DNA from: Atractiella rhizophila
Taxonomy: Eukaryota
Reading direction: 5' to 3'
Assembly (NCBI GenBank): GCA_021432655.1
Contig: MU271504.1
Span: 11,639-52,170, forward strand
DNA length: 40,532 nucleotides
Shown: in pieces, positions 12,528 to 39,794 of the stretch
How the letters are laid out: each line of letters starts with the position of its first letter
Position numbering within the stretch: position 1 is the stretch's first letter
Position numbers and translations under genes: made by a program
Notes under the pieces: model-generated
Databases searched by the model: none
Told to the model about the DNA's origin: nothing
The model's input: only the letters and a program-made list of their open reading frames with translations

Positions 12528-15500
12528 TCACTCCGCACTAGGACTCTCACTCCTCTCAAAAGCACCAGGCATCAACCTCCCACTTCCGCTGGTACTCTGA
12601 TTCCTGGTCCCCTCCGACTCATCCTGCTCGATCAGTTCATACACCGCTCTACCAGTCTCGTCCCTCCCAATGAGTCTATACTCTCTCCCATTCCTGGCGA
12701 CCAACTGATCGGCGAGCCACTGAGGTTGAGGATGAGGGCTACCCATCGGCATCCGGCTTGTGCTTGCTCCGGCATTTGAAGCGGCAGCTGGGGGAAGCGA
12801 GAGGGATCTCTGTCCGTGGCTATGTCCATGCCCATGTCCATGTCCAGAGGGACCAGCATTCGCATTCGAGGAGGGAACAGTGGGCCAGTCTGGCGGATCC
12901 ACGTCCATAGGAATGGTTCCAGCGGCGATGTGACTTTCCATCTGCTGTCTGATCGCCGCGACGTTGATATGCCTAGGTCCACCTCTCCGACCTCCCATCC
13001 CTGCTCCAGGAACGAGGGGACCGCCCGGTCCTGCGCCGGTGAAAGGAGTTTGGTATTGTAAACGCTCGGTGGCGTCCGAAGGTGCTTCCAGTTGAGCATC
13101 TGTTGCGCGACCGTAGTAGATGGGATTGTACCCTCTGTTTTGTGCGAGAGAGGTGAGATAGCGCCTGAGATCGGCGACGCCTTTTCCAGAATAGACGCAG
13201 AAAGCGGTCCGTTGATGTGCGTTAAAATCCTGTGCATCAATCAGTTCACGTTCTACTCCTCGAGATCCCTCCATCATTTATTGGAGGGAATGGAAGAAAC
13301 ATACTTTAGGAGCGGGTCTACAATAGCTCTGCAAATCGTTCCTCCTGAAAGCAGGAACGCCAGTAAGAGAGAGATGGGTGAGTTTCGTCAACCTAGTTAG
13401 TAGGAAATGGATGGCTGAAACGGTGATGCGCTCGCAGTAGGAGAGATGGATGCGTTCCAAAGAGGATCTTTCGACGAGAGCGTATATGGCGCTATCCGTG
13501 AGGTTTTGGACCTGTTGAGGGTGTTAGGTTCATGAATGGACCAGCAGAATATGAGTGAAGGGGACAAACCCTGACGAGTCCGATCCGCTTCATCTTTATC
13601 AAGTTCTGCGCAGTTCGATCACGCTCAGATCAGTAAGATTAGGGCAGCCTAGTCCATAAACATCAACGTGAATCAACTGATAAGAAAGGTGACATACAAG
13701 CCAAGTCAATGTACCTCAACCTCGTACAGTTCCTCGCCAGTCTAATCACCGCCTTATCGGTGATATTATTGACATGTCCAAGATGCAAATAATGAAGATG
13801 TTTCCCCAACCTCCCCACCGAATTCAACGCTTCATCTGTCAACGCATTACATTTGGCCAACAACAGGTTCCGGATCCTCGGACACTGTGTCACGATTCCG
13901 TCCACAGCTGCGTCCGTAAGCCTCGACAGCTGCGAAAGATCGAGGAACCGGAGATGGTCAAACACGGGCGGGAACGGTTTCTCGTCTAAAGTTCCGAGGG
14001 TGGATGCCAATGCATCGAAGGATGAGGGGAGGGTGAGTCGGATTTCTTCTCTATATGAGTCAATCGGTATCCTGGATATGCAAGTGGAGATCGGGAAGGC
14101 TGTCTCGTCGATTTCGGGTAGTTGGGTCATCACGAGTTCTCGGAGGTGAGTAGAGAGACGGAATAAGGTCCAGAAAGCTTTCGGGGTCACCTTTGTGCAG
14201 AGCGCAATGTCGATCTCGAGCAATAGTGGGCAAGAGGCGCATAGAGCGATAAGCGCGGAGTCTGTCAGCGATGCAAGGCCCTTCATCTTGATCTGTTCAT
14301 CATCCCACAACCATAAATCGACATCAATGGCTTGCTCGTCCCCAAATGAGTGCAGCAGTATAAGGAGGATGAACGCACCCTCCGCATCCCAGGACACCCT
14401 GCAGCCACAGCCATGACTCCTTCATCTCCCACATTCTTACACCCAGTCAAATTCAGTCCTTGAAGCCTCCGACAATTTCTCCCCACTTCCACCACACCTG
14501 CATCCGCTATTCCCACACACTCGCTCAGATCCAGCGCTACGAGTCCCTTGAGCCTCCGGACAAGGGGTATGAGACCAGCATCAGAGATACCAGTACATCC
14601 GTTGAGGGTGAGACGCTCGAGACGGGTGCAGGGGAGGAGGTGGCGTAGAATGGGATCGTCTATTTGTTGTGCTAAGAGGGAGAAATTGAGACGTCTGATG
14701 TACCTCGGATAAGCGAAAGTGGGAGCTCGTTCCTCTTCCTTCTCTCCACCCTCTCCATCCACTTCTGCGGAAACGGACGCGGTGGGAGAGGGCGGGCCGT
14801 CCTCCAACATCTCCACATCCTCTCCACCGATCCCCATTTCGTCCGCGAATAGTTCCTGGTACGCTTGACTCCTCGCTGTTCGAGTGACGATGATCAACAT
14901 CCGGAGGAAGTTGGAAATCTGAGTCCCGAGCGAGGGTTTGAACCATATGAATTCGACCGCGCAATGACACCATGACTTGCAGACTAGGAGAGCAGATTTG
15001 AGGTCGGATGGGAGGGGTAGGAAGCGAAAGATGTGTATGATGATTTCGTGTGGCAAAAAGGCAGGTGACGGAGGCAACTCGCCATTCGTCTGCAAATAGG
15101 AAGGGAAACGCCATGCCAACCCTCCTCCAGGGCCTATTCCTCCCAAAGAATCACTCACATCCATCACACTTGAACTTAGAGAAGCGCGAATGGTATCTCT
15201 CCTCGACCTCACAACCCCTCCGCCACTCCCACTCGGGTTCACGATCGCCATCCCTTTCTTCATCGACGGACTAAGCATCTCCGCCGGTCCAGTAATCCTC
15301 CTACCGATCGAAATTTCCTCGTCAGCCTCAGCCTCGGCGTCTCCATCCAACGCATCCACATCCTCTGCGTCTGCATCCCCATCCCCATCTCCATCCGTCT
15401 CCTCCTCGTCGCTCACGGAGGGTGCGGGGGAGCCAGACACCCCAGAGCGCGAGGAACGCCCGGATGGCCCCGTGTGGTCCTCTGGGTGTCGTTGGATTTG

Positions 15501-15572
15501 GGCTGCGCGTGAGGCGGGTGCGGACGTGGGTCGTGGACTGTGAGATGGAATGTGGAGGACCGGGTGCTGCAT
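12528..15572 (-). CDS. GRR1: SCF ubiquitin ligase F-box/LRR subunit, GRR1 family; multi-exon
   Basis: F-box LPHEIIIHIFRFL...LLVCKSWCHCAVEFIW, then FAYPRYIRRLNF and cysteine-containing LRRs (LERLTLNGC, LHYLHLGHV, RLRYIDLAC, LERIHLSYC, LTHLSLTGV). It also has FNAHQRTAFCVYSGKGV, typical of fungal Grr1. Confidence 0.92.
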
Positions 15573-16608
15573 GCTGCCTTCCGGATGCGACTTGCGATGG
15601 CTGGACAGTAGACGCTCAGTTAACAGACTGGGACACTAATCGAGAATGGGTAGTAGTGCAGGCGAAAAGGGCAGAGCAAATATCAATGTCGTCGTTGGGT
15701 TGGGAAAGTGACAGCGTTTGTCGATGTTTGGGTCACCAGCGTTATCAAACTCTGAGAACGAGGACAGCAACGGCATTTATTCATTTATTCGTTTTATTAC
15801 GTTTTGCATCACTTTGCATCATTACAGTATATAGGTAGCCATTCATACTCTTCACAGATATTTCTTTGGGTTGTCTTGCAAGAATGTCGCAAAGAACTCA
15901 ATCAGAATCCCTGTGCTCACGCTGTTCGCTGTTGGGGGATCCGTGAGGTAGAATGTCATTGATATTCACTCTCAAACCAATGAACATCCATTTACGCCAA
16001 CCCAAACGACGTCCTGAACAAACTATATCCCTTCACTTATGGTCTTCTCGAGAAGTTATTAGAACTACTACAGTTAACTTGAAAGTCGCTTGTTCAAACT
16101 AAGCAGTCCTGACAAGGTGACAATGCTTCACACAATTGTGGCAAGATTTCAAAAAGAATATTCCGTTTATCGATCGAAGCTGGAGAGGTGGTCGCTGTAC
16201 CTTTGGACCTTCAAATTCCCAAACTAATCAAATAATCTCTCATTCAATACACATATCGTCAGAATGCCAACCTAAGCCAGAGATCGGTAGAATACTTCTA
16301 CAATGAAAGTATTTTATCGATACTTAATGGTACAGTTGATGAAGTTGTGTTCCTTATGTGACCTTACAATTTGCCACTGAATCTGCCGCTTCAAATAGTT
16401 CACGAGGATAATCGAAGTGCAGAGTCAATAAAACAACTCGATGGATGATGCCCACACCTGCTTTATCCACAATCGTTCCTTTGACGTTCATTTCATTTCA
16501 TTTCAACTTATTCCAGTCCGCACCGTAATTGTAAAAGCGATGCTCACATCTAACTCTTCTGTAATGGATACTGTATTCATAACACAGCGCTTCGTTCAAA
16601 CTCGTAAC

Positions 16609-20971: not shown

Positions 20972-21853
20972 GTGCAATTGTGTTGATTGGCGCAAATACC
21001 AATGTTTCTGCAATCTGAACCCACTTTCTTCTTCTTCATGCTGACATTCTCTCCTCAGTCTAATAATGCAAGTATCGCCGCAACGTAGGAGATTTCATTC
21101 TCCGATGCTCACTCTAGGCACAACTTCCCGGTTCAGCCCTGGTCAGCCACTAGCCACTACACAGCTCTTCATTCCCCCTCAGGGGTATGAGCAGCTACAA
21201 CAACTTCCTCCTACTTCGACCATATCGCTTTCGAGACACAAACTAAAGGATTTTGAGAAAGGTGGATGACGGAATGGCTCGTTGACGTGTTTGATGCAAT
21301 AGGCTGTCGCTACGCTAGGAAGGTGCGCTGCAATTTATTCAACATCAGGCCACTGCGACTGGGTCTGTTGTGGGACATCTCGAATAAAGTAGCGTCCCCG
21401 ATCCTTTGCTTCCAGTAGGGTTGGATACTCCAAACTGTTTCAATAGACCAGTTTGGCGTTGCAGCCATGAGAGCTCGAGGGAGTCCCCAGGCTGGGAGGG
21501 AGATGAACATGAACTGTCCGGTGCCAGCATCCTGAAATCATGCCTTTTCCTGAAAGCGGTTTCCACTCGGATGGACTAGTCCGCACACGTCAGCCCTCGC
21601 AAGCCTTCTTCATGGCATCAATGTCCTGTTGTTCGAACTCCACAATTACATCTCTAGCTGCGGTCCTGCTATTCTATGCTTCAATAAGCTCATCAGATGA
21701 AGGGGTGTACACTGAACGGGCGAATCATGCTGTGCACCCTCAGGGTATTTCATCTTGGGTATAAATGGCCTGCTTCCTTCCTTTGGTGTCCCCAAGCAAT
21801 CAAACACCAAGTCTCAATTGTACTTAACTTGGACTAAAGCCGCATATCCACAA

Positions 21854-23960
21854 ATGTCCGAATCCGAGATGCACAGGATCACACTTTCCGCTCAGGACTT
21901 TCCTATCGACGAAGTGACTTTATATTCTAAGAGAGCGGAAGTCTCTCGAACGGTCAACTGTGCCTTGAAGAAAGGGGACAATGAAGTCGTTGTTGGGAAC
22001 TTACCCACTTGTCTGATCCGCGAGACACTCAAGTATGTCACACTGCTGCTGCCCTCTGTTGACTTGAGATTACTTACTCTGCCAAACAAAGGGTTGACGG
22101 TTCTGCTGAGATTAACACGATCCTGAAATACGTGACATATCAGGTTGTGGATGTGGAGCGAGTGTCCTTGAACTCGTCTCCGGAATACAAAGCCCTTGTG
22201 GCTCAAGTGAACACTCTTCGAGCATCCTTGGAAAGAGTACACTCTAGAAAAGAGGTGTTGAAAAACTTTGTCGCTGCTCTTTCTCCGGAGAAGGCTGGGG
22301 TGGAGCAACTGAAGGAAGCCCTGAAGTATCAAGAGGAGGAAGGGGCGAGCATGTACGAGCGCGAGGTGGAGTTGGGAAAGGAGTTGCAGAGAGTGCAGGA
22401 GGCCAAGAACGATCTGGAGAGGGGCGTAAACGGTGGGAAGGCGGATGGAACCGAAAGGTTAAGAGGGAAAGCGACAGTGGGAGTCTGGGCTGAGGAAGAG
22501 GGGGAGGTTGAACTCTCTTTCAGCTATGGTTTGTCCTCCGTAGCTTTGTGGAGGGATATAGGGTTAACAGTGGCCATTTTAGCCACGGATAAGGCCCTTT
22601 GGACACCTAGATACGACGCGAGGCTAACATCTATTGAGGCGAAGAGCGGAGAGAAGCCGTTGAAGCTGTCTTACAAAGCGGTTATTCTTCAGGCAACCGG
22701 AGGTAAGTCGCTCCATGTTCTTCTGTTCTCCTGACTTTACTGAGAAACGTCATAGAGGACTGGAACAACATTCAACTCTCGTTGTCCACCGCCATCCCAA
22801 CTCTCTCTACCAAGCCTCCCACACTCAATCCTTGGACACTGTCAGCACTTCAACCCGAACCCAAAGCAGAATTTACACTTGCAGCGACAGGTGGAGGGAG
22901 AACACGCCAAACAGCCCGCAAGAGTACGGGAGGAAAGGCTGCCCGCAAGCAGCTAGCTGATGGAAGCGGATTGGGGGAAGTTGCGAGATATCGGAAGATG
23001 ACGGTTCAGACGTTGGAAGTGAAAACCTCGAATCATCTTTCAACGCAATTCGAGCTTCCTGGTGTGACTACTCTGAAGAGCTTGGAGGATCACGAATTTG
23101 ACGACCTTACGGGATGGTTCGACGAAGAGTATGAGGACCAGGAAGAAATGGACGGGCGCCTTTTGGAGGTTCTGCAGAGGAGGACCGTGGCCATAAACGA
23201 GTTGAATTTGCCCGCTTCGTTCGAGTGGTTCGTTGTACCGAGGATGTCTGAGAGCGTCTTCTTAAACGTTTGTTCCTTCTTACCAAGTAAATGAGCGAGA
23301 TCTAATAACGCATAATAGGCAAGCTGCAAGAATACCTCCGAATATCCTCTGCTTAAGGGACCTGCTACCGTTTACTTAGATGGAAGCTTCGTCGCTAAGT
23401 CTGTAATTGTGGATGTGAATGTAAACGAAAAGTTTATACTCAACCTTGGGTCTGTCCCTTCATTCTTTTTAGTCCTTAGCGCTTATTCACATTTCCCTTG
23501 TTGCAGTCCCGATCGTTCCATCCGTGTCAGCTACCCACCCAGAACGAAGAACTCCACGACATCTGGCTTTATTTCCAAGGCACGCTCACATACTTATACC
23601 CAACGCGCGATAATCCACAATACGAAGCAACAGTCAGTTAACCAACTTACACTTCTTGATCGCGTCCCCCTCTCTAGTGACGGCAGCATTCATGTCAAAA
23701 TCATAAAACCTCAATTACCAGATGCAAATACCGTCCTGCTCTCGAGTGCGACGAATAAGTTCGTGAGCGTGTCTAATGGCGTGTGGGCGAGGTGGAAGCC
23801 GCTGGAGGGCGATGAAGCGATGATCCAGGATGGAAAACCGGATGGGAGAATAGAATGGTTGGTGGAACTGGATGCGGGAAAGAAGACCACTTTGGTTACT
23901 GAATGGGAGGTGTCGGCCGCCGTGGGAGTGACTGTGCTGGGATTGGAGAATGAGGAATAA
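21854..23960 (+). CDS. DUF4140/DUF4139 (mucoidy inhibitor MuiA-like) protein carrying an internal histone H3-tail motif; multi-exon
   Basis: N-terminal IDEVTLYSKRAEVSR (DUF4140), a coiled coil, then ALWTPRYDARL, QATG|EDWNNIQLSLSTAIP, CKNTSEYPLLKGPATVYLDGSFV, LG.D.SIRVSY and LLDRVPLSSDGSIHVKI (DUF4139). Confidence 0.88.
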
Positions 23961-24436
23961 AATAAAACATGTTGTGAGCTGATTCTTGCAATAGGCTGCT
24001 TGTGCGTTTGTTGACAATATCGCAGGTTGATGCGTCCAAAGTGTACTTTACACCATCTATTCCCCAATGTGTGAATCTATGAATGCGCACACTATTTCCA
24101 ATCAAGTTGTTGTCTAGACTTCTACAGCGCCTTCCTTGCTAGCTCTTCCACAACCTTGAGGCGGAAACCTTCAGCACACCCAAACCCGATCCCGATGGCT
24201 CATAGTGCTCATACTCAGTGATGACATCGATTCCTGCAGTGAATTTGACACCGGTTACAACATCGACCTCACTTGACATCACACTGTCGATCCCACGGCT
24301 ATTTGACTAATGGGTTCATCCCTCTCAACTTGTCCCTGACTTGCTGCATCTTGAACCCAGCTTCCCAGAGTTCCCAGTGCGAATTCTACCAAACCCAAAC
24401 CAGACCAGCCCAACCAAATTCACCAAAGTCAACGCC

Positions 24437-26146: not shown

Positions 26147-29100
26147 TCAATCTTGTCCATCTCCCAAATCTAGGCACATGTTAGTGGTACTTTCGCCGTA
26201 AAACAAAACAAAAAGCGACCCACATCTCCAAGTCAAATTGGTGTGATCGTTGAAGCCAAATAACTGCACCACCTGCGAATCTCCAGGCATCACGTCCAAA
26301 CCATTATCTGACAAGCGGGTATCATCGTTAAAGGAGAGTATTAAACCCTTCACAGGCCTATCGGCGGAAACCTTAACCGCCTTTGCATTTCTGTCGAAAT
26401 CGACGACGACGTTTGTGTCTTTGCGCGTAGGAAAAGCGAGGAACTTGAAACTGCACAGGAGTCGGTAAACTTTTGTTGCCGAAATGAATGTCATACGCAC
26501 GGCTCAGGCCAGGTAGCGAACCTGGAGACCACAGCCCTGCTCGTTTTATTGATCAATCTTGCAGCAACAACCACAGTTTTCTTGTCGTGGACAATTGGTG
26601 GTTCAAACTTCTCTAATTCGATGCTGCCGAGTGCAGGGATGGCGACATCTTTCTTTTCCTCCCACAACAGCTTGCCTGACAAAAATTCTACTGCCTCAAT
26701 ATGGAGCTGAAAGGACTTCGTCGTAGGACTAGAATTTACCCCCCAAATCTCGACGTATTCGGTATCGACGTAGAAAGCTGCGGAACGCTTGGAGGGGTAA
26801 GTTCGCTGGACATAGCGCTTCATTCCGATTGCTACCGGTGCGAGAGCTCGTTTCACCGCAAAGTACTGACGACAGATTAGCCAGGATTAGCTAAGGAAGG
26901 TAGCGTATGGATGACCAACGGCAGGTTTGGGTCGGAGGAAGTAGTCCACAATCGCCCATGAGATTGTAGGCCAGCAATCGCTATGCCAAAATCAGCGGCT
27001 TTGCAACAGAAAAGCATGGACGGACTCGATCTGCCAAACCAGAGCGCCACCGTTATAATACTTCTTCTCCCCTTTGAAATCTCTTCTCCATAACCGATAA
27101 GCAGTTTCGATTGCTTCGGATTGCATTAACTGTGTATAGTAGACGTAACTTTCGATCTCGAACGAGTGACGGAAGTTCTCGACGAGATCTGTAGGAACGA
27201 CTTAGCGATAATGAGAAAGACAACGGGCAAACTGACAGAGCTCCAGTCGGCTAGGGACTAGAATATCAGTGCAAGCTACCGTATTGGAGAAGAGGCGTAC
27301 CGCTCAAACCCAGCGGCCTTGTTATGATCGCACATGGTTTGTGATTGCGGGAATCGTTCCGAAACTTCACCGTCCAGTAAGCTGTAATGAAAGCCATCAG
27401 CTTGGTTTGATTATTCTGTGTACTGTGGCGCACTAATCGATTGTCTTGATGTCTGGGTATCCCTCCATCCCAAACTCGGAAACGAAGCGTCCACCCAACT
27501 TGTCCCAATCTTGGTATCGTTGCTGCAAATATTTGTCAAATGATTAAAAAAGACTCAAAACGAAACGTACTTGCGAACCATGCCAGACTAGGGGAATGAT
27601 CAGCGTAGAAGGAAGGAACAAACATCAACTCCACGCACCATTCCATTGATGGATGTCTCCTACTGTCGGATCCTTAGTGTTGACACCTCCCCATGGCGAA
27701 CCAGGGTGATAGTAAACTTCTGGAGCTGTCAAGGCTTTCACAACCTCAGGCAAAGTTCTCTCGTAAATCTCTCGAGCGGGAAAGTTGGTTTTCGTATAAT
27801 CCCCTGTTGTGTCTGAAGGGTCGTATTCGAGTTTACATGCCTCAGCAATCTACAAATTTGACCAAGGTAAACTCGAGAGCGGAGCGAGCAAAGCAGTACC
27901 TGATAATCTTCATTGTTTCCCGCAAAGATCGCAAGACAGGCATGGTGCCGCAATCTTTTAACGTTCAGTTCTGCTTCCTGTTTCACACTCGACAGGAATT
28001 CAGGATGCGCCGGATATTGACTATGCAGGAGAGATAGAGTCAGGTGGGAACTCTTGGGCGTTGATAAGAACTTACCCACAGCCGAACATGAACTGTGGAT
28101 AGTCATGGACCTCTTGGCCTGATATGGAAGAAAAAGCGTACATCTTGCCAGACTAATAGTCCCTTCTCATCACATAAATCGTCTACATCGCCAGTCAGTC
28201 AGCCTTTCTACACAATGACGACCAACTACACACAGAAGCAATCTTCCTCATAAACACCTCCACCCCAGACCCTAACCATATTTTGATTTCCTTGGGCAAC
28301 CAGTTCCAACCAATCATCGTAGCGTTTCTTGTTAACATTGCTCAAGAAGTTATCGCAGGGAATCCAATTGCTGCCTCCAGCGAAAAGAGGGAGATTGTTG
28401 ACTTCAAAATAGAAGCTTGTACCGGGCTGACCGTCTAACGGTTCCTGAACAAGTCGAAGGCGACGGAAACCGACCTTTTGCTCTTCGGTAGTTGTAACCT
28501 TGCCCAAAAAGTCAGACTGTTGCCGATGTATGAAAACAACACAAAAACCGACGTTTTCGAAGCTAACCGTGACCCTGACAGAGTAGAGACATCCCACTTC
28601 CTCTCTGGTTTCCTTCTGTCCTAAAGCCCACCACAGTTCAATGTCTCCCTTTTCAAACTTCCCGAGATCGACTATTGTATCTTCATTAACCTTCGCTTCC
28701 ACTGTTTGAGAACTCAAAACGCGAGACGATTTGGGATCGATGAGTTCTACGGTAGCGGATACGCTGTTGGCGGAAGACTTAGGCGCTGAGATGGCGCTAA
28801 AGGAAACTGAAAGAGAGGATGTTAAATCGTGAGCGACGACGGGCCGCGAATACCTGGAAGAATGCGTGAGTCGCACAACAGACCGAGGCAACAGCTCACA
28901 AGTCTTCAATCCTCAATGCAAACGTCTCCAATACAATAGGCCGCCAAGGTCCAATCGTCATCAGAACTGGCCTAACGTCCATGCAGTTTGGGATTCGAGC
29001 AAACAAATACATAAAACAACACATACCCCCAATCCCATCCCCAATTCGTTCCACTCTTTCTCACCCACAATCTCGCGGCGTCACCGTTCCATAAGTTTAC

Positions 29101-33444: not shown

Positions 33445-33792
33445 CTCGGGACTGCAAGACATTCTGATCAATTATGATGACCGTACGGCAACCACTGGTA
33501 CTTATTAGATGGAACCTTGAGCGCAGGTGGACAACTTATTCGTTGATTTCGCAACACCAACCTCTACATCATCTTCTCATCCAGAGGTTCATGCGGGGCG
33601 TATAGGGCATTTACTCCATTCAGCAGAACAACTATGATTATAATTTGGAGTAACGAAGACGCCCACGACGAGAAAATTTGGGAAGGCGAGTGAAGCTTCA
33701 GGATCAAGCATACATAACCTGCAACCCAACTCACCAATATCAATAACAGCGAAAAGCGAAAGGGTCTGGATACGGTATTCATCATATGAAGA

Positions 33793-36700
33793 ATGCACCT
33801 GAGCGCATTGGATCAAGTGACTCTTCCCGTTTCCGACCAGGACGCGTCGGTTCCGCCGAAACGACGACCGCGGAATGCCTCAATGACTTTAGAGAAGGTG
33901 GAACATGACGAGGTCAGAGAGCCAGTGGCGTTGGAGGATGGGACAGATGGTTTAAATGGCACTGATGCTAAGTCAGAAGGGACGCCGCTGAATGGCAATG
34001 GTTTACACCCCAACGTCGATCCGCCAATGTCCAATGGAGAGGTCTCCGAGTCTGAGCAGGAAGAGGAAGACGAAAATGAAGAGGATGAGGATGACGAGGA
34101 GGAGGAGCCGGCGCTGAAATATTCGCTGTTCCCAACTCTCGCTTCTTCTCTCGAATCACAACATCTCACCATGTCGTCCGTCTACCTCTCGAAGCATTAC
34201 ATAGTCCTTGGAACTCATCAAGGCACGGTTATGGTGTGGGATCATGACCAAGTTTTAGTGAAAAAGTGGAGAGCTCATGGTGCGACGGTGAATGCGGTTA
34301 CGATGGATGAGAAGGAGGAAATGGTGGGCACGGCAGGTCATGATGGTGAGTCTATTCTTCAAGGCGCGTGGGAGTGGGAGCGGAGAGCGTTCCCGTGCTT
34401 GGTATGCATGTTTCCTGTAAAACGTCGCTGGAGCATGGTTGAGCACATTCGTAAGGGTCATATTGTTGGTTGTAGCTCTTGGGAAGTAACCGCTGAGTTT
34501 TGAAAGCTGCAACATATCATAATACCTATCATGGGGATTGTGCATATCGTATTTGATGCGCTCCGCCTTCTCAGACTCCTTTATATAGCCTACATGCTGA
34601 AATGGAGTCAACAGGCAGAGTCTGTCTCCTCCCTCTATCGGCAAAGGAAGAGGCGCACGGGCACGATTTGAAGCGTCCTATTCTAGCACTCGCCCTCGAG
34701 CCACGGTATGCGGACTTAGGGACGAAACGGTTTGTGTGTGGTGGGATGGGAGGCAACTTGGTAATGATGGAAAAAGGATGGTTGGGAAATAAGGAGACGA
34801 AGATCTTTGGAGGAGAGGGCCCGATCAGGGCAGTAGAGTGGTGGGAGAGATTAGTAGCATGGGTGTCAGATGCTGTGAGCTTTTCCTTCTTACGGAAGAA
34901 TACTTAGACGATAGAAGGCTGATGCCACGTTTGGATCGGAAGGGCGTTAGGGTCTATGATGTTCAGACAAGTCAACGGATCGCCTTCGTACGCTACCCCC
35001 AATCTTCGCCTTCTCCAGCTCTCATCCGTCCCTCCCTCTTCTTCTCTCCTTCGCTCAACGGTCGTCCCACCCTCTTGATCGGTTGGGGATCCCTCCTTTC
35101 ACTCCTTTCCGTCAAACCTCATTCGGAAGCTGCACACGGCGCTTTTAACCTCGCAAATCTTCCCGGGGTCAGCTTGATGAAGGAAGAGAAGCTTGTATTC
35201 GACGTACCGGCTGTGAGCCTCGAGTTCGATTGGGAGATCTTAGGTGTGAGACCATATGGTACGGAAGGCTTTTTAATCCTTGGTTATCCGACAGAAGAAG
35301 AGGAGGGAGAAAAGCGACCCAGTCTCCTCGTCGTCAGTAATGAAGGAGAGGAGTTGTCAGCTGATGAACTTGAATTGGCACATGCGGACAAATTCAAGAC
35401 GTGGGATTATCGGTTCTGTTCCATTGATCGCCCTCCGGTATCGACAACAACAACAGGTAATGCAACTCACGATGATGATGGTTGGTACGTCATGTCGCCG
35501 GAGGATCTAGTATTAGTCAAACGGCGCGATCCCTCCGACCGCGTCGAATGGCTCACTTCCGTTGGGCGATACGAGGAGGCTCTGGAACTATTAGATGGGC
35601 CAAAAGGGTTTGTTGACTTGGGAGTCAACGGATCAATGGGAACTGTGAAAGGGGATCGCAAGGCCATAGGGAAAAAATGGATGGCGTCGTTATTAGAGAA
35701 GGGGGAATATGAGAAGGCAGCACAGGAAGGACGGGAGTTCGTTGATGGAAAGGATGAGTGGGAGGCCTGGGTTTGGGCTTTTGTCGAACGCGGTCAGCTC
35801 AAGGTCATCATCCCTTTCGTCCCGACTACTGAGCCGAAACTGGAGGCGACCGTATATGAAATGATCCTGGCCTCCTTTCTCAAATCCTCTCCTGCCGTGC
35901 GCGCTTTCCTCTGATCACGTCACATCTGTGAAACCATGACTGTGATTTAGAAACTGCTCGAAACGATCAAGGAATGGCCAGGCGACATCTACTCTACTTC
36001 CTCCGTCCTCCTGGCTGTCCAGGATCGGATTGATCGCACCGACCGCACCGTCCCAGAATACGATATCCTCCTCTCTTGCGCGCTCGAACTTCTTCTTCAC
36101 TCCGAACAATACGCGAAAGCGATCCCTTACTTTCTGAAACTCCGGAAACTCGAAGTTTTTGAGTTCATTAAACAGCATCAGCTTTGGGACCAAATGAAGG
36201 AAAATGATGGGATTAAGGAGCTCGTGTTGTTCGAGAGGAGCGTCAAGGGTGAGAGTGGGGAGGAGGAGGCAATGCGCCTCTTCGTAGAGCACACTAATGA
36301 GATACCTATCGACCGCGTCGTTCAGCAACTGGCATCAGAACGGAAGGACCTTTTTAAATACCTCGATGGAGTTTTTGAGAAAGATCCTCATCTGGCTTTT
36401 GCTTACGCTGATCTACAAGTGCGTTATCTGTGTTCTTGTCGAGGTATATGCTGATGACACCCAGGTTGAACTCTACACTGAATTTGGTTCCAACAAGCTT
36501 ATGCACTTCCTTAGATCCAACAGCTACTACAGCTTAGAGGTGCGAAACCTAAATCCACCTTCCTTGGTGTAGAAGCTGAATCACTAATAGAAAGCATACA
36601 ATGTGTGTCAAAAGTACGATCTGATACCAGAAGTCATATTCCTGCTTGGAAGGATGGGAAACAACAAGAAAGCTCTCATGATTATCATCGAGCGTCTAGC

Positions 36701-37811: not shown

Positions 37812-39794
37812 TCAGCTCCGCATGGGAGCTGGGCTCTGTCTCCCCGATGGACTACTCATTCCACCTCCCCATCTACTTGTCGGTGTCTTTGCGCTATCTC
37901 GTCTTACGGGTGAGGGTTTCGACGACCCCTTGCTGGTTTTCATCTTGGCAGCGGAGGAGATGAGGTCCTACATTATATAAGCATTTGCTCTGAATTGGGA
38001 ACGATGAACACGTACGGAGATCATGCTGTTGTATGCCTCTCCGTCTTGCTGTTCTTTCTCCCTCAATTGCAAGGTCCAAGTAAGAAGGCTGCTGGTATTT
38101 CCCGACAGTGTGCTGATCTCTGCGTGAAGTTTCTTGAGGGATGGTAATGGCAACAGCAACAGTTCATCTGTCAACACAAACGCAGCAAAAGGGTCAGTTT
38201 CTTATCATCTCCACTTCCCAAATGAAGGAAGCTAAGAAGGAGCGAAACAAGTAGATAACGCACCCTCGTTAAGTTTGAGGATCTCTGCTATCCGACTCCT
38301 ATCGATCTCCGGCTTCTTACCCGCCGCACTCTCCTCCCTCTTCCGTGCAGGCACAGACGACGAAGCACCTCTCACCGGTGCACTCTTCTGACCACTCGCA
38401 CCTACACCACCAGCGCCAGCGACAGACGCCTCCGTCCGCCCGGTATCGATCTCCAACTTGCCCATTCTTCCACCTACATCCTCCAAAAAGTCCTCCAGGT
38501 TAACGGGTATGCCGAGCGCCTGGAGGTAGCTTCTGCGGGTCAAGCTGCGCTGGAAGGTGGTCACGCTGAGTGTGGAGTCGGGGGGAGAGGTGAGGTGTGT
38601 GAGGAGGGCTTTGGTGGATGGGGAGAGGGGTATGCGGGAGGGTGCACGGTCGGTCGTGAGGGAGGAAGAGAGGGTGGGGTAGAGAGTGGTGATTAGGGAA
38701 GACGTGAGGGGGAGCAGTGAGGTGTGTGTTAGTTCTGAGGGGAGCTTTAGGGGTGGTGAAGAGGGCGGTGGACGTGAGGCTGAAGGTGTCGGCTGTGGAT
38801 GGGACCGTGGCAGTCAGTCAAAGACCTGATTAGAAGAGAGAAAAGGGACAGCCTGAGGTAATGAAATATGGCGATCATAAATAGCTCTGAATACGCTTTC
38901 TTCAACGCTCGCAACACAAGCTTGCTCAGCGGATTGACAGATTGTTTGATTGGTATTCGTGTTATAATCATCTCAACCACTTCTCTCTAGCGGGAAACAC
39001 AAACAGCTTCCTCTACTCTAAACCCAACAAAATAGATCAGAAGCGGAACAACTCACTTGCGATGATCCTGCTCCTAAATCTCCCTCAACACGTCCCATGT
39101 CCATGCTCTCAAATCCATCTCCATTCCCAAAGTCTCCAAAGTCTCCAAAATCTCCAAAGTCGTCATCTCCACCAGCTACCTCTCCAAAACCATCATCCCC
39201 AAAATCGTCATCCGGAAACTCATCCATCGGCGGGTCCTGTCGACTTGTACTCGACAGATCCGAGGAAGGAGGAGGTAAAGAAAACAGTGCCGGTTTCGAC
39301 ACGTTTGTCGACGCAAGAGGCGTTTCTAGCGGTGCATCTACTTCTTCTTTCGATTCTTTGGATTCTGGCAACTGTGCAGGCGGCGTCGATGCTGATGAAT
39401 CGTCCGCCAATTTTGATGTGGTGGGTGGAGGCGAAGAAGGAGCGGTGGCCGCCTCTTCGAGAGGCAACGAATCGAGGGCCTCCTCAAACTCGTTATCTTC
39501 GTCCGTTGGACTACTTTCGCCACTCTCCAACTCCTCCACCTTCCTCTGCCCATGGCTCCTTGTCGAAAGCGTCAACTGTGCCGCTGGCGGTGCGACTGGA
39601 GAGGAAGAAGTGGACCAATCTGGACCATCGTCATCGTCCTCAAACGTCGTCCTTGCCTTGTCGGAATTCAGAGCATCGGACTTGGAGTTTAGAGAAGCTG
39701 GGATGGGTGATGAGAAAGTGGAGCTGAGATCGGGTTGTGGTGTGCTGAATGTTTCGGATGGCGAGGCCCAGGCGGCGGAGGGATCTTCGTACAT
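37812..39794 (-). CDS. Acidic, disordered DFGDF-motif protein, probable AP-1 accessory factor (Laa2/DUF5102-like); multi-exon
   Basis: Exon 1 contains DDDFGDDGFG and DDDFGDFGDFGDFG. Later exons give SYLQALGIPVNLEDF and LLTWTLQLREKEQQDGEAYNSMIS|DLISSAAK, ending PMRS* at 37812. Confidence 0.65.
38870..38978 (-). ncRNA. Probable intronic box C/D snoRNA guiding 18S rRNA 2'-O-methylation
   Basis: It lies in the 231-nt intron 39056-38826. Features: C-like box ATGATTA (38971-38965); guide CAATCTGTCAATCC (38944-38931), exactly antisense to the conserved 18S segment GGATTGACAGATTG; CTGA (38929-38926) one nt after the guide; terminal ATGA (38878-38875); flanking AGAGAGAA/TTCTCTCT stem. Confidence 0.72.

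Follow-up and report, generated by a model that had tools for sequence, protein, structure and literature searches.

Introduction

Short histone mimics have been described in influenza NS1 and other viral proteins, in the automethylation motifs of G9a and SETDB1, and in LIG1; in each of these a tail-like linear motif with an ARKS-type core lies at an accessible site of a non-histone protein. Most of the proteins are viral or are themselves chromatin enzymes. Here we describe a histone-tail look-alike in a gene of the root-associated fungus Atractiella rhizophila. Within the window (the whole stretch of 40,532 nucleotides that was analysed), positions 22899-22958 of the forward strand encode, in frame within a long exon, 20 residues that resemble residues 2-21 of histone H3. 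The gene encodes a 610-residue DUF4140/DUF4139 protein that carries the NCBI name 'hypothetical protein BT69DRAFT_1267680' and is referred to here as P0002. Whereas the described mimics, in the portions of that literature available, extend over about 4-6 residues, P0002 matches H3 at 18 of 20 consecutive residues; it differs also in being the organism's own protein, known here from its sequence and a model. In sequence and in predicted accessibility it resembles a histone mimic.

The histone tails themselves provide a second point of comparison. The N-terminal regions of H3 (residues 1-28) and H4 (residues 1-34) are nuclear localisation signals (NLSs) bound by Kap123 and importin-4. In crystal structures (PMC5677370), Kap123 contacts H3 G13-K14-A15 plus K23, and H4 residues 13-20 with K16, R17 and R19; the consensus for such signals is given there as small-K-small, at least six residues, and then a lysine. 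The G-K14-A element is kept in the H3-like stretch of P0002, and GGAKRHRK-type cores are found in those of its relatives that carry an H4-like loop. With histone H3 (PF00125) P0002 has tail residues 2-21 in common, but it is without the histone fold and its H3-like stretch is internal.

The third comparison is with the protein's own family. P0002 shares both Pfam domains, the conserved motifs and the predicted architecture with the DUF4139/DUF4140 proteins (TIGR02231-type), which include the 'mucoidy inhibitor A' of Pseudomonas and F37C4.5 of C. elegans. Bacterial DUF4139 members differ in having signal-peptide-like N-termini and short, plain loops, the tail look-alikes described below being found in fungal paralogues only. 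We found no established function for the family in the literature, where DUF4139 is mentioned incidentally in four papers and 'mucoidy inhibitor A' in one review. F37C4.5 is reported to have been pulled down with the demethylase NMAD-1 (PMC6638966) and is listed among MUT-16-associated proteins (PMC7255803). The titles and abstracts searched hold no description of P0002 or of histone mimicry in the DUF4139 family, in agreement with an earlier reading of the DNA letters alone (the sequence-only reading), to which no description of the fusion was known.

Results

Sequence of the H3-like stretch

The stretch was placed as follows.

22899-22958, forward strand: H3-like stretch, residues 294-313 of P0002 (PDB phmmer search, translation and transcript contigs).

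When the translation of window positions 22875-22994 was compared by phmmer with all PDB chain sequences (E ≤ 10), 135 distinct sequences were matched, and each of the 60 listed belongs to H3, to a variant of it or to a peptide derived from it, with one entry labelled Cse4. The lowest E value was 2.7e-6. In the alignments 18 of the 20 residues are identical to H3 residues 2-21, the sole differences being K4 to R (R296) and P16 to A (A308). The equivalents of K9 (K301), S10 (S302), T11 (T303), K14 (K306), R17 (R309) and K18 (K310) are all kept, and the likeness to H3 at the sequence level is far beyond chance.

The stretch is preceded by LAATGGG and followed by DGSGLG, and DUF4139 motifs lie in the same exon on either side of it, EDWNNIQLSLSTAIP upstream and FELPG / LLKGPATVYLDGSFV downstream. 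Both of its ARK triplets are coded by the identical nine bases GCCCGCAAG, at 22914-22922 and 22941-22949; the second triplet exists only because of the P16 to A change. The sequence-only reading had proposed the 18/20 identity with K4R and P16A as the only changes, intact equivalents of K9, S10, T11, K14 and K18, and in-frame DUF4139 motifs on both sides, all of which the phmmer alignments and the shared exon bear out. It had further held that the K4 site and the free N-terminus are lost, as the arginine at the K4 position and the location of the stretch at residues 294-313 of 610 confirm, and that the stretch occupies a variable, Gly-flanked linker of a DUF4139 protein, a placement upheld by Pfam, by the family alignments and by the AlphaFold2 model described below.

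Transcript contigs across the stretch

Contigs of four public sequencing runs (X1-X4) were placed on window positions 21800-24000; X1-X3 may derive from the strain behind the assembly. Runs X5-X17, with small shares, do not enter the analysis. In X3 a contig of 1257 letters lies on 22582-22700, 22754-23267, 23319-23448 and 23506-23975, with clean GT..AG joints at 22700/22754, 23267/23319 and 23448/23506; a weaker joint precedes 22582 (side 24, 'between: not known'). Within exon 4 this contig departs from the window by one letter, at position 23051. The X1 and X2 contigs are unspliced and continue across the introns, and those of X1, X2 and X3 show zero differences from the window within 22899-22958. 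X4 carries another organism label and is 95-99% alike; its contig covers 22892-23267 spliced to 23319-23419 and has six differences in 22892-23267, five of which are not placed relative to the stretch. As the stretch stands in spliced contigs, it is part of the mature mRNA and not an assembly chimera. The sequence-only reading had left it to transcript data to confirm that 22899-22958 is exonic, and the spliced contigs of X3 and X4 do so.

Predicted structure of P0002

An AlphaFold2 model of P0002, built with a 110-sequence alignment, has a mean predicted local distance difference test (pLDDT) score of 86.1 and a predicted template modelling (pTM) score of 0.75. Its body is made up of beta-sandwich domains together with a hairpin of coiled-coil helices (90-122 and 130-174). 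For residues 283-326 the pLDDT lies below 50, and the H3-like stretch therefore falls within a predicted disordered loop.

22866-22997, forward strand: predicted disordered surface loop, the hypervariable linker of the family, residues 283-326 (pLDDT below 50; alignment columns that are unalignable among homologues).

The model thus predicts that the H3-like stretch is displayed on an accessible, disordered surface loop, a point that the sequence-only reading had left to a structure prediction. Comparison of the whole model with the PDB by Foldseek gave no informative relative, with template modelling (TM) scores of about 0.1 in all rows. The only matches of a wide fold search (VIA) with the whole model were to coiled-coil hairpins, on residues 82-177; their Z scores, of up to 10.2, lie within the range expected of helical hairpins.

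Distribution of the stretch among paralogues and relatives

The nearest non-self relatives of P0002 are 40-41% identical to it and include four further A. rhizophila proteins (P0023, P0024, P0046 and P0054). A. rhizophila has at least five species-specific DUF4140/DUF4139 paralogues, P0002 included. The five form one clade, with Shimodaira-Hasegawa-like (SH-like) support of 97, in a FastTree phylogeny of 155 family members (P0002, 149 representatives of a family search with roughly 9,230 matches and 5 further homologues) that was built without the loop columns. The loop differs in each of the five paralogues, with the H3-like stretch present in P0002 only.

The stretch is likewise found in none of the 154 other family linkers, and database searches yielded no other DUF4139 protein with an H3 tail. 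A word search with residues 281-325 against proteins of 335-1068 residues yielded, among 49 candidates, only P0002 itself and one 739-residue histone-domain protein outside DUF4139. In metagenome scans, relatives of exon 4 came to 0 confirmed from 155 pattern matches, and a 33-base part of the stretch had no exact match. Within the databases searched, the H3-like stretch thus appears unique to one paralogue of one species.

Tail look-alikes in the loops of relatives

The loop, taken as the alignment columns matching P0002 residues 270-340, was cut from all 155 proteins. In fungi it is the hypervariable part of the DUF4139 family, carried on a conserved body. Among these 155 loops, regular expressions for known tails and repeats marked one as H3-like, four as H4-like and three as CTD-like (CTD, the C-terminal domain of RNA polymerase II), and found arginine-serine (RS) repeats in 13 and phenylalanine-glycine (FG) or GLFG-type repeats in 11; outside the loop the same expressions found no H3-like, H4-like, CTD-like or RS sequence and one FG match. 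Both the hypervariability of this loop and the look-alikes that relatives carry in it would be new here.

A look-alike of the H4 tail, of the type GLGKGGAKRHRKVL with an acidic run after it, occupies the corresponding loop position of five proteins: P0031 (Logan assembly), P0042 of Crassisporium funariophilum, P0053 of Crepidotus variabilis, P0065 of Agrocybe pediades and P0152 of Mucidula mucida, the last four representing four named species of Agaricales. The block lies at about residues 236-312, in the loop, of each protein, and R17 and R19 are kept in all five. The linker of P0031 gave 64 matches to PDB sequences, 59 of the 60 listed being labelled H4, with a best E value of 1.6e-5 and 17 of 21 residues identical. 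Against H4 chains of the PDB the best E values were 0.0023 for P0053 and 0.11 for P0065. Three of the four PDB matches of P0152 are H4 peptides (E 0.65-1.4), the top match being unrelated, and P0042 was assigned from the alignment of the H4-like blocks. Overall the five proteins are only 38-50% identical to one another in pairwise comparison, and the block may have a single origin on the tree. It has been kept while its flanks diverged, which argues for selection on such cassettes and is the best available evidence for it.

The loop of P0028 (Volvariella volvacea) contains about five heptads like those of the RNA polymerase II CTD and matches RPB1 CTDs with an E value of 3.5e-29. CTD-like sequences were also recognised by regular expression in P0072 (Crassisporium) and P0111 (Moniliophthora roreri), and by eye in P0036 (an Auriculariales species). 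Seven FG loops fall in one clade of 12 in the FastTree phylogeny, and the Pfam Nucleoporin_FG profile is found in 10% of the members of one basidiomycete DUF4139 cluster of a protein atlas. RS and FG repeats are of low complexity and therefore carry less weight than the H3, H4 and CTD matches. Several family paralogues per genome were found in Crassisporium, Paramarasmius, Crucibulum and Ephemerocybe, and Crassisporium has paralogues with different cassettes, H4-like in P0042 and CTD/RS-like in P0072.

Inspection of other loops by eye produced further candidates. In P0062, P0082, P0078 and P0027 the acidic runs end in a ...DEDMGF..LFD-like sequence. The Pfam Ribosomal_60s profile matched two of these four proteins, at its last positions only and with E values of 0.09-0.14, and a phmmer search of the PDB with P0062 gave no match to the ribosomal stalk tail; the resemblance to that tail is a weak lead in sequence. 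The loops of P0098 and P0064 had looked 'H3-ish' and were rejected, as the six weak PDB matches of the former and the six PDB matches of the latter include no histone.

A shared core motif and the origin of the stretch

Of the 155 loops, 14 contain a motif of the form RF[LI] or R[KR][IVQ][LF], in most cases with an acidic run after it; 300 shuffles of the loops gave 2.8 such loops on average and 9 at most. The motif was defined post hoc from data already inspected. The 14 include P0002 (RKQL-AD, residues 309-314), four of the H4-like blocks (RKVL, RRIL, RRIF) and the Atractiella paralogue P0023, in which GGGGRFLDSLGS stands, as judged by eye, at the place of the P0002 motif region. The sequences suggest that the loop may have had a basic-R-x-L-acidic motif before the likeness to a histone tail arose.

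The stretch may have originated by capture of a histone coding sequence or by stepwise convergence, either of which is possible. No flanking duplication or microhomology was found at the stretch, its only repeat being the nine bases GCCCGCAAG. The G+C content at third codon positions is 0.50 in the stretch and 0.57 in the host gene, so that codon use is host-like, although this would bear on the origin only by comparison with the H3 gene of this genome.

The gene, its domains and its neighbourhood

The exons at 21854-22032, 22092-22528, 22583-22702, 22756-23267, 23319-23449 and 23507-23960, when joined, give P0002 exactly, and the translation of exon 4 is 100% identical to the database protein. 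The remaining features are listed below.

21854-23960, forward strand: gene for the 610-residue DUF4140/DUF4139 protein P0002, six exons (spliced coding sequence equal to the database protein; spliced contigs).

21914-22278, forward strand: DUF4140 N-terminal domain, residues 21-122, across intron 1 (Pfam PF13600, E 1e-16, 61.6 bits against a cut-off of 27).

22513-23918, forward strand: DUF4139 domain, residues 201-597, across introns 2-5 and broken by the variable loop (Pfam PF13598, E 8.8e-41, 140.3 bits against a cut-off of 31.8).

22756-23267, forward strand: exon 4, which carries the loop, residues 247-416 plus two bases of codon 246 (GT..AG joints 22700/22754 and 23267/23319 in X3, the latter also in X4; gene model).

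23073-23180, forward strand: acidic insert found in this paralogue only, about residues 352-387, with two short predicted helices (alignment gaps; AlphaFold2).

Residues conserved throughout the family near the loop (GEDW..., LSTA.P and YLDG.FV) are present in P0002; in the family alignments A1 and A2, W248 is invariant and E246, L255 and T257 are nearly so. A Pfam scan of P0002 gave no match to the histone domain PF00125 at E ≤ 1. By these sequence comparisons P0002 is a member of the DUF4139/DUF4140 family and not a histone. The acidic insert, EDHEFDDLTGWFDEEYEDQEEMDG..., lies about 40 residues downstream of the basic H3-like stretch, with helices predicted at 357-368 and 379-387; it is a gap in all nine homologues of alignment A1 and in the paralogue P0023, and it has no look-alike among PDB sequences (three chance matches).

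The 40.5-kb window holds no histone gene and no other H3- or H4-like word. Its other genes include F-box/leucine-rich repeat (LRR), major facilitator superfamily (MFS), short-chain dehydrogenase, mannosidase, Vps41 and LAA2 fragments, and the neighbourhood is ordinary and housekeeping. Reading frames at 13666-15635 (reverse strand), 33790-36451 (forward), 38235-38813 (reverse) and 26150-26886 (reverse) match F-box/LRR, Vps41, LAA2 and beta-mannosidase immunoglobulin-like domains.

The contigs also showed variation elsewhere in the gene. X1 and X2 each have two contig versions of its 5' part (window 21800-22338), one identical to the window and the other with 17-19 differences in 244 bases, which suggests two haplotypes (a dikaryon or a heterozygote) or two strains. 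Further downstream, beyond 22309, there is one long contig per run, and those of X1 and X2 depart from the window at six positions. Some contigs of X1 and X4 match only the conserved 40 bases 23412-23451, with six differences, and then continue into unlike sequence; these probably come from paralogous DUF4139 genes.

Discussion

Our preferred reading, the probability of which we put at about 45%, is that the H3-like stretch of P0002 is a docking motif that mimics a tail and is under selection, its most likely targets being proteins that bind histone tails, for instance import receptors. The loop would then be the specificity module of the family: the conserved body, with its beta-sandwiches and coiled-coil hairpin, would bear an exchangeable short linear motif, and this motif would imitate the tail of an abundant cellular machine, so that the protein docks on the factors that normally bind that tail. 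We infer selection on the stretch, binding and the identity of a partner; the sequence, its expression, its position in a variable loop predicted to be disordered, its confinement to one of the paralogues and the parallel H4 and CTD look-alikes of relatives are observed. The H4, CTD, RS and FG look-alikes found elsewhere in the same loop make a selected 'mimic cassette' more plausible, and they favour a docking or address role over one specific to H3K9. The partners of first choice would be importin-beta-type histone import receptors, giving nuclear targeting, because the H3 and H4 tails are the import signals of the histones, because the parts that Kap123 contacts are the parts kept in the look-alikes, and because transport receptors also bind RS repeats, basic clusters and FG repeats. 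By reading of its sequence, P0002 formally fits the Kap123-type consensus, with G305-K306-A307 ... K326. Writers or readers of the K9/S10/K14/K18 region would be the second choice.

A number of observations weigh against a docking role of this kind. Histone NLSs are N-terminal whereas the motif of P0002 is internal, a lysine at the native H3 K23 spacing is absent (DGSGLG follows A313), and K16 is replaced by methionine in two of the five H4-like blocks. Loss of the free N-terminus and of K4 excludes many H3 readers, and we know of no CTD heptads that serve as import signals. RS and FG repeats can arise by slippage; the matches to the Pfam Nucleoporin_FG profile in 4 of the 12 FG-type proteins scanned (of 16) are below threshold, at 22-26 bits against 32.2. 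Finally, the H3-like stretch occurs in one species only, and since the loop is hypervariable a neutral insert could be tolerated there.

A neutral capture would have pasted an H3 coding piece, as DNA or cDNA, into a tolerant disordered loop, for example at break repair; the insert would be functionless and its likeness to H3 a sign of youth. This explanation is unlikely, though it deserves to be taken seriously. It is consistent with the confinement of the stretch, in all searches, to one of five paralogues in one species, with a loop that tolerates almost any sequence across 155 relatives, and with the two substitutions already accrued, but it does not lead one to expect an insert that is exactly in frame with Gly-rich spacers around it. 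The window has no histone gene and the stretch no flanking duplication or microhomology, and codon use gives no visible sign of a highly biased gene, although this last point is weak. The maintenance of the H4 block at the same site, across proteins as divergent as those five, also speaks against it in that such inserts can evidently persist. A different role for the same residues, and a rather improbable one, is that of a substrate or competitive decoy for chromatin enzymes and readers, in which the K9 and K14 equivalents would be methylated or acetylated, S10 phosphorylated, and the marks read by chromo- or bromodomains, so as to regulate the DUF4139 protein or titrate the factors. This had been the main idea of the sequence-only reading, which named Clr4, Aurora, Gcn5 and HP1 as possible partners and an NLS as an alternative. 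The TARKS core is intact, as is the sequence around K14 and K18, and the loop is predicted to be accessible; viral proteins and enzymes of the G9a and SETDB1 type have short H3K9-like motifs that are reported to act in this way. The recovery of F37C4.5 with NMAD-1, a nuclear demethylase (PMC6638966), points in the same direction, whereas tagged F37C4.5 gave no visible signal in C. elegans germ cells (PMC7255803). Such a role would moreover leave the RS, FG and CTD-like loops of the relatives unexplained.

Plant integrated decoys suggest, by analogy only, a further idea, which we regard as a long shot: that fast-changing paralogues act as bait or guard in a genetic conflict, displaying host tails (H3, H4, CTD, RS, FG) so as to intercept or sense foreign proteins aimed at them. 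Lineage-specific expansions, with at least five paralogues in Atractiella and several per genome in Crassisporium, Paramarasmius, Crucibulum and Ephemerocybe, and a hypervariable loop on a conserved body would suit this idea, but Pfam finds no signalling or effector domain in the body and the fold searches gave no informative match. That the stretch is an artefact, whether an assembly chimera, a mis-spliced model or contamination, can be set aside almost entirely and is already contradicted: all four runs have contigs with the same sequence, those of two runs being spliced, the joined exons yield exactly the database protein, and conserved DUF4139 motifs flank the stretch in the same exon.

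The docking-motif reading has a wider form, which we offer tentatively and consider doubtful on balance. In it the fungal DUF4139 loops would serve generally to display sequences that resemble the tails of core cellular machines (H3, H4, CTD, RS, GLFG-type and possibly the ribosomal stalk), each paralogue being sent to a different machine or intercepting the binders of that machine. As part of this wider form, and no more firmly, the H3 stretch might be one cassette of an unrecognised addressing or bait system based on mimicry.

P0002 may represent a new variant of histone mimicry and, together with its relatives, a broader and so far undescribed pattern in which one scaffold carries tail look-alikes. 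Should the loops prove functional, they would offer a first handle on DUF4139, a domain that spans bacteria, nematodes and fungi. They would also provide natural experiments, paralogue by paralogue, on what a histone tail does outside chromatin, whether as import signal, reader bait or enzyme decoy, and mimicry of several cellular tails would have arisen repeatedly on one scaffold. Taken at the level of sequence, the loops suggest a protein family that works by imitation of well-known cellular tails.

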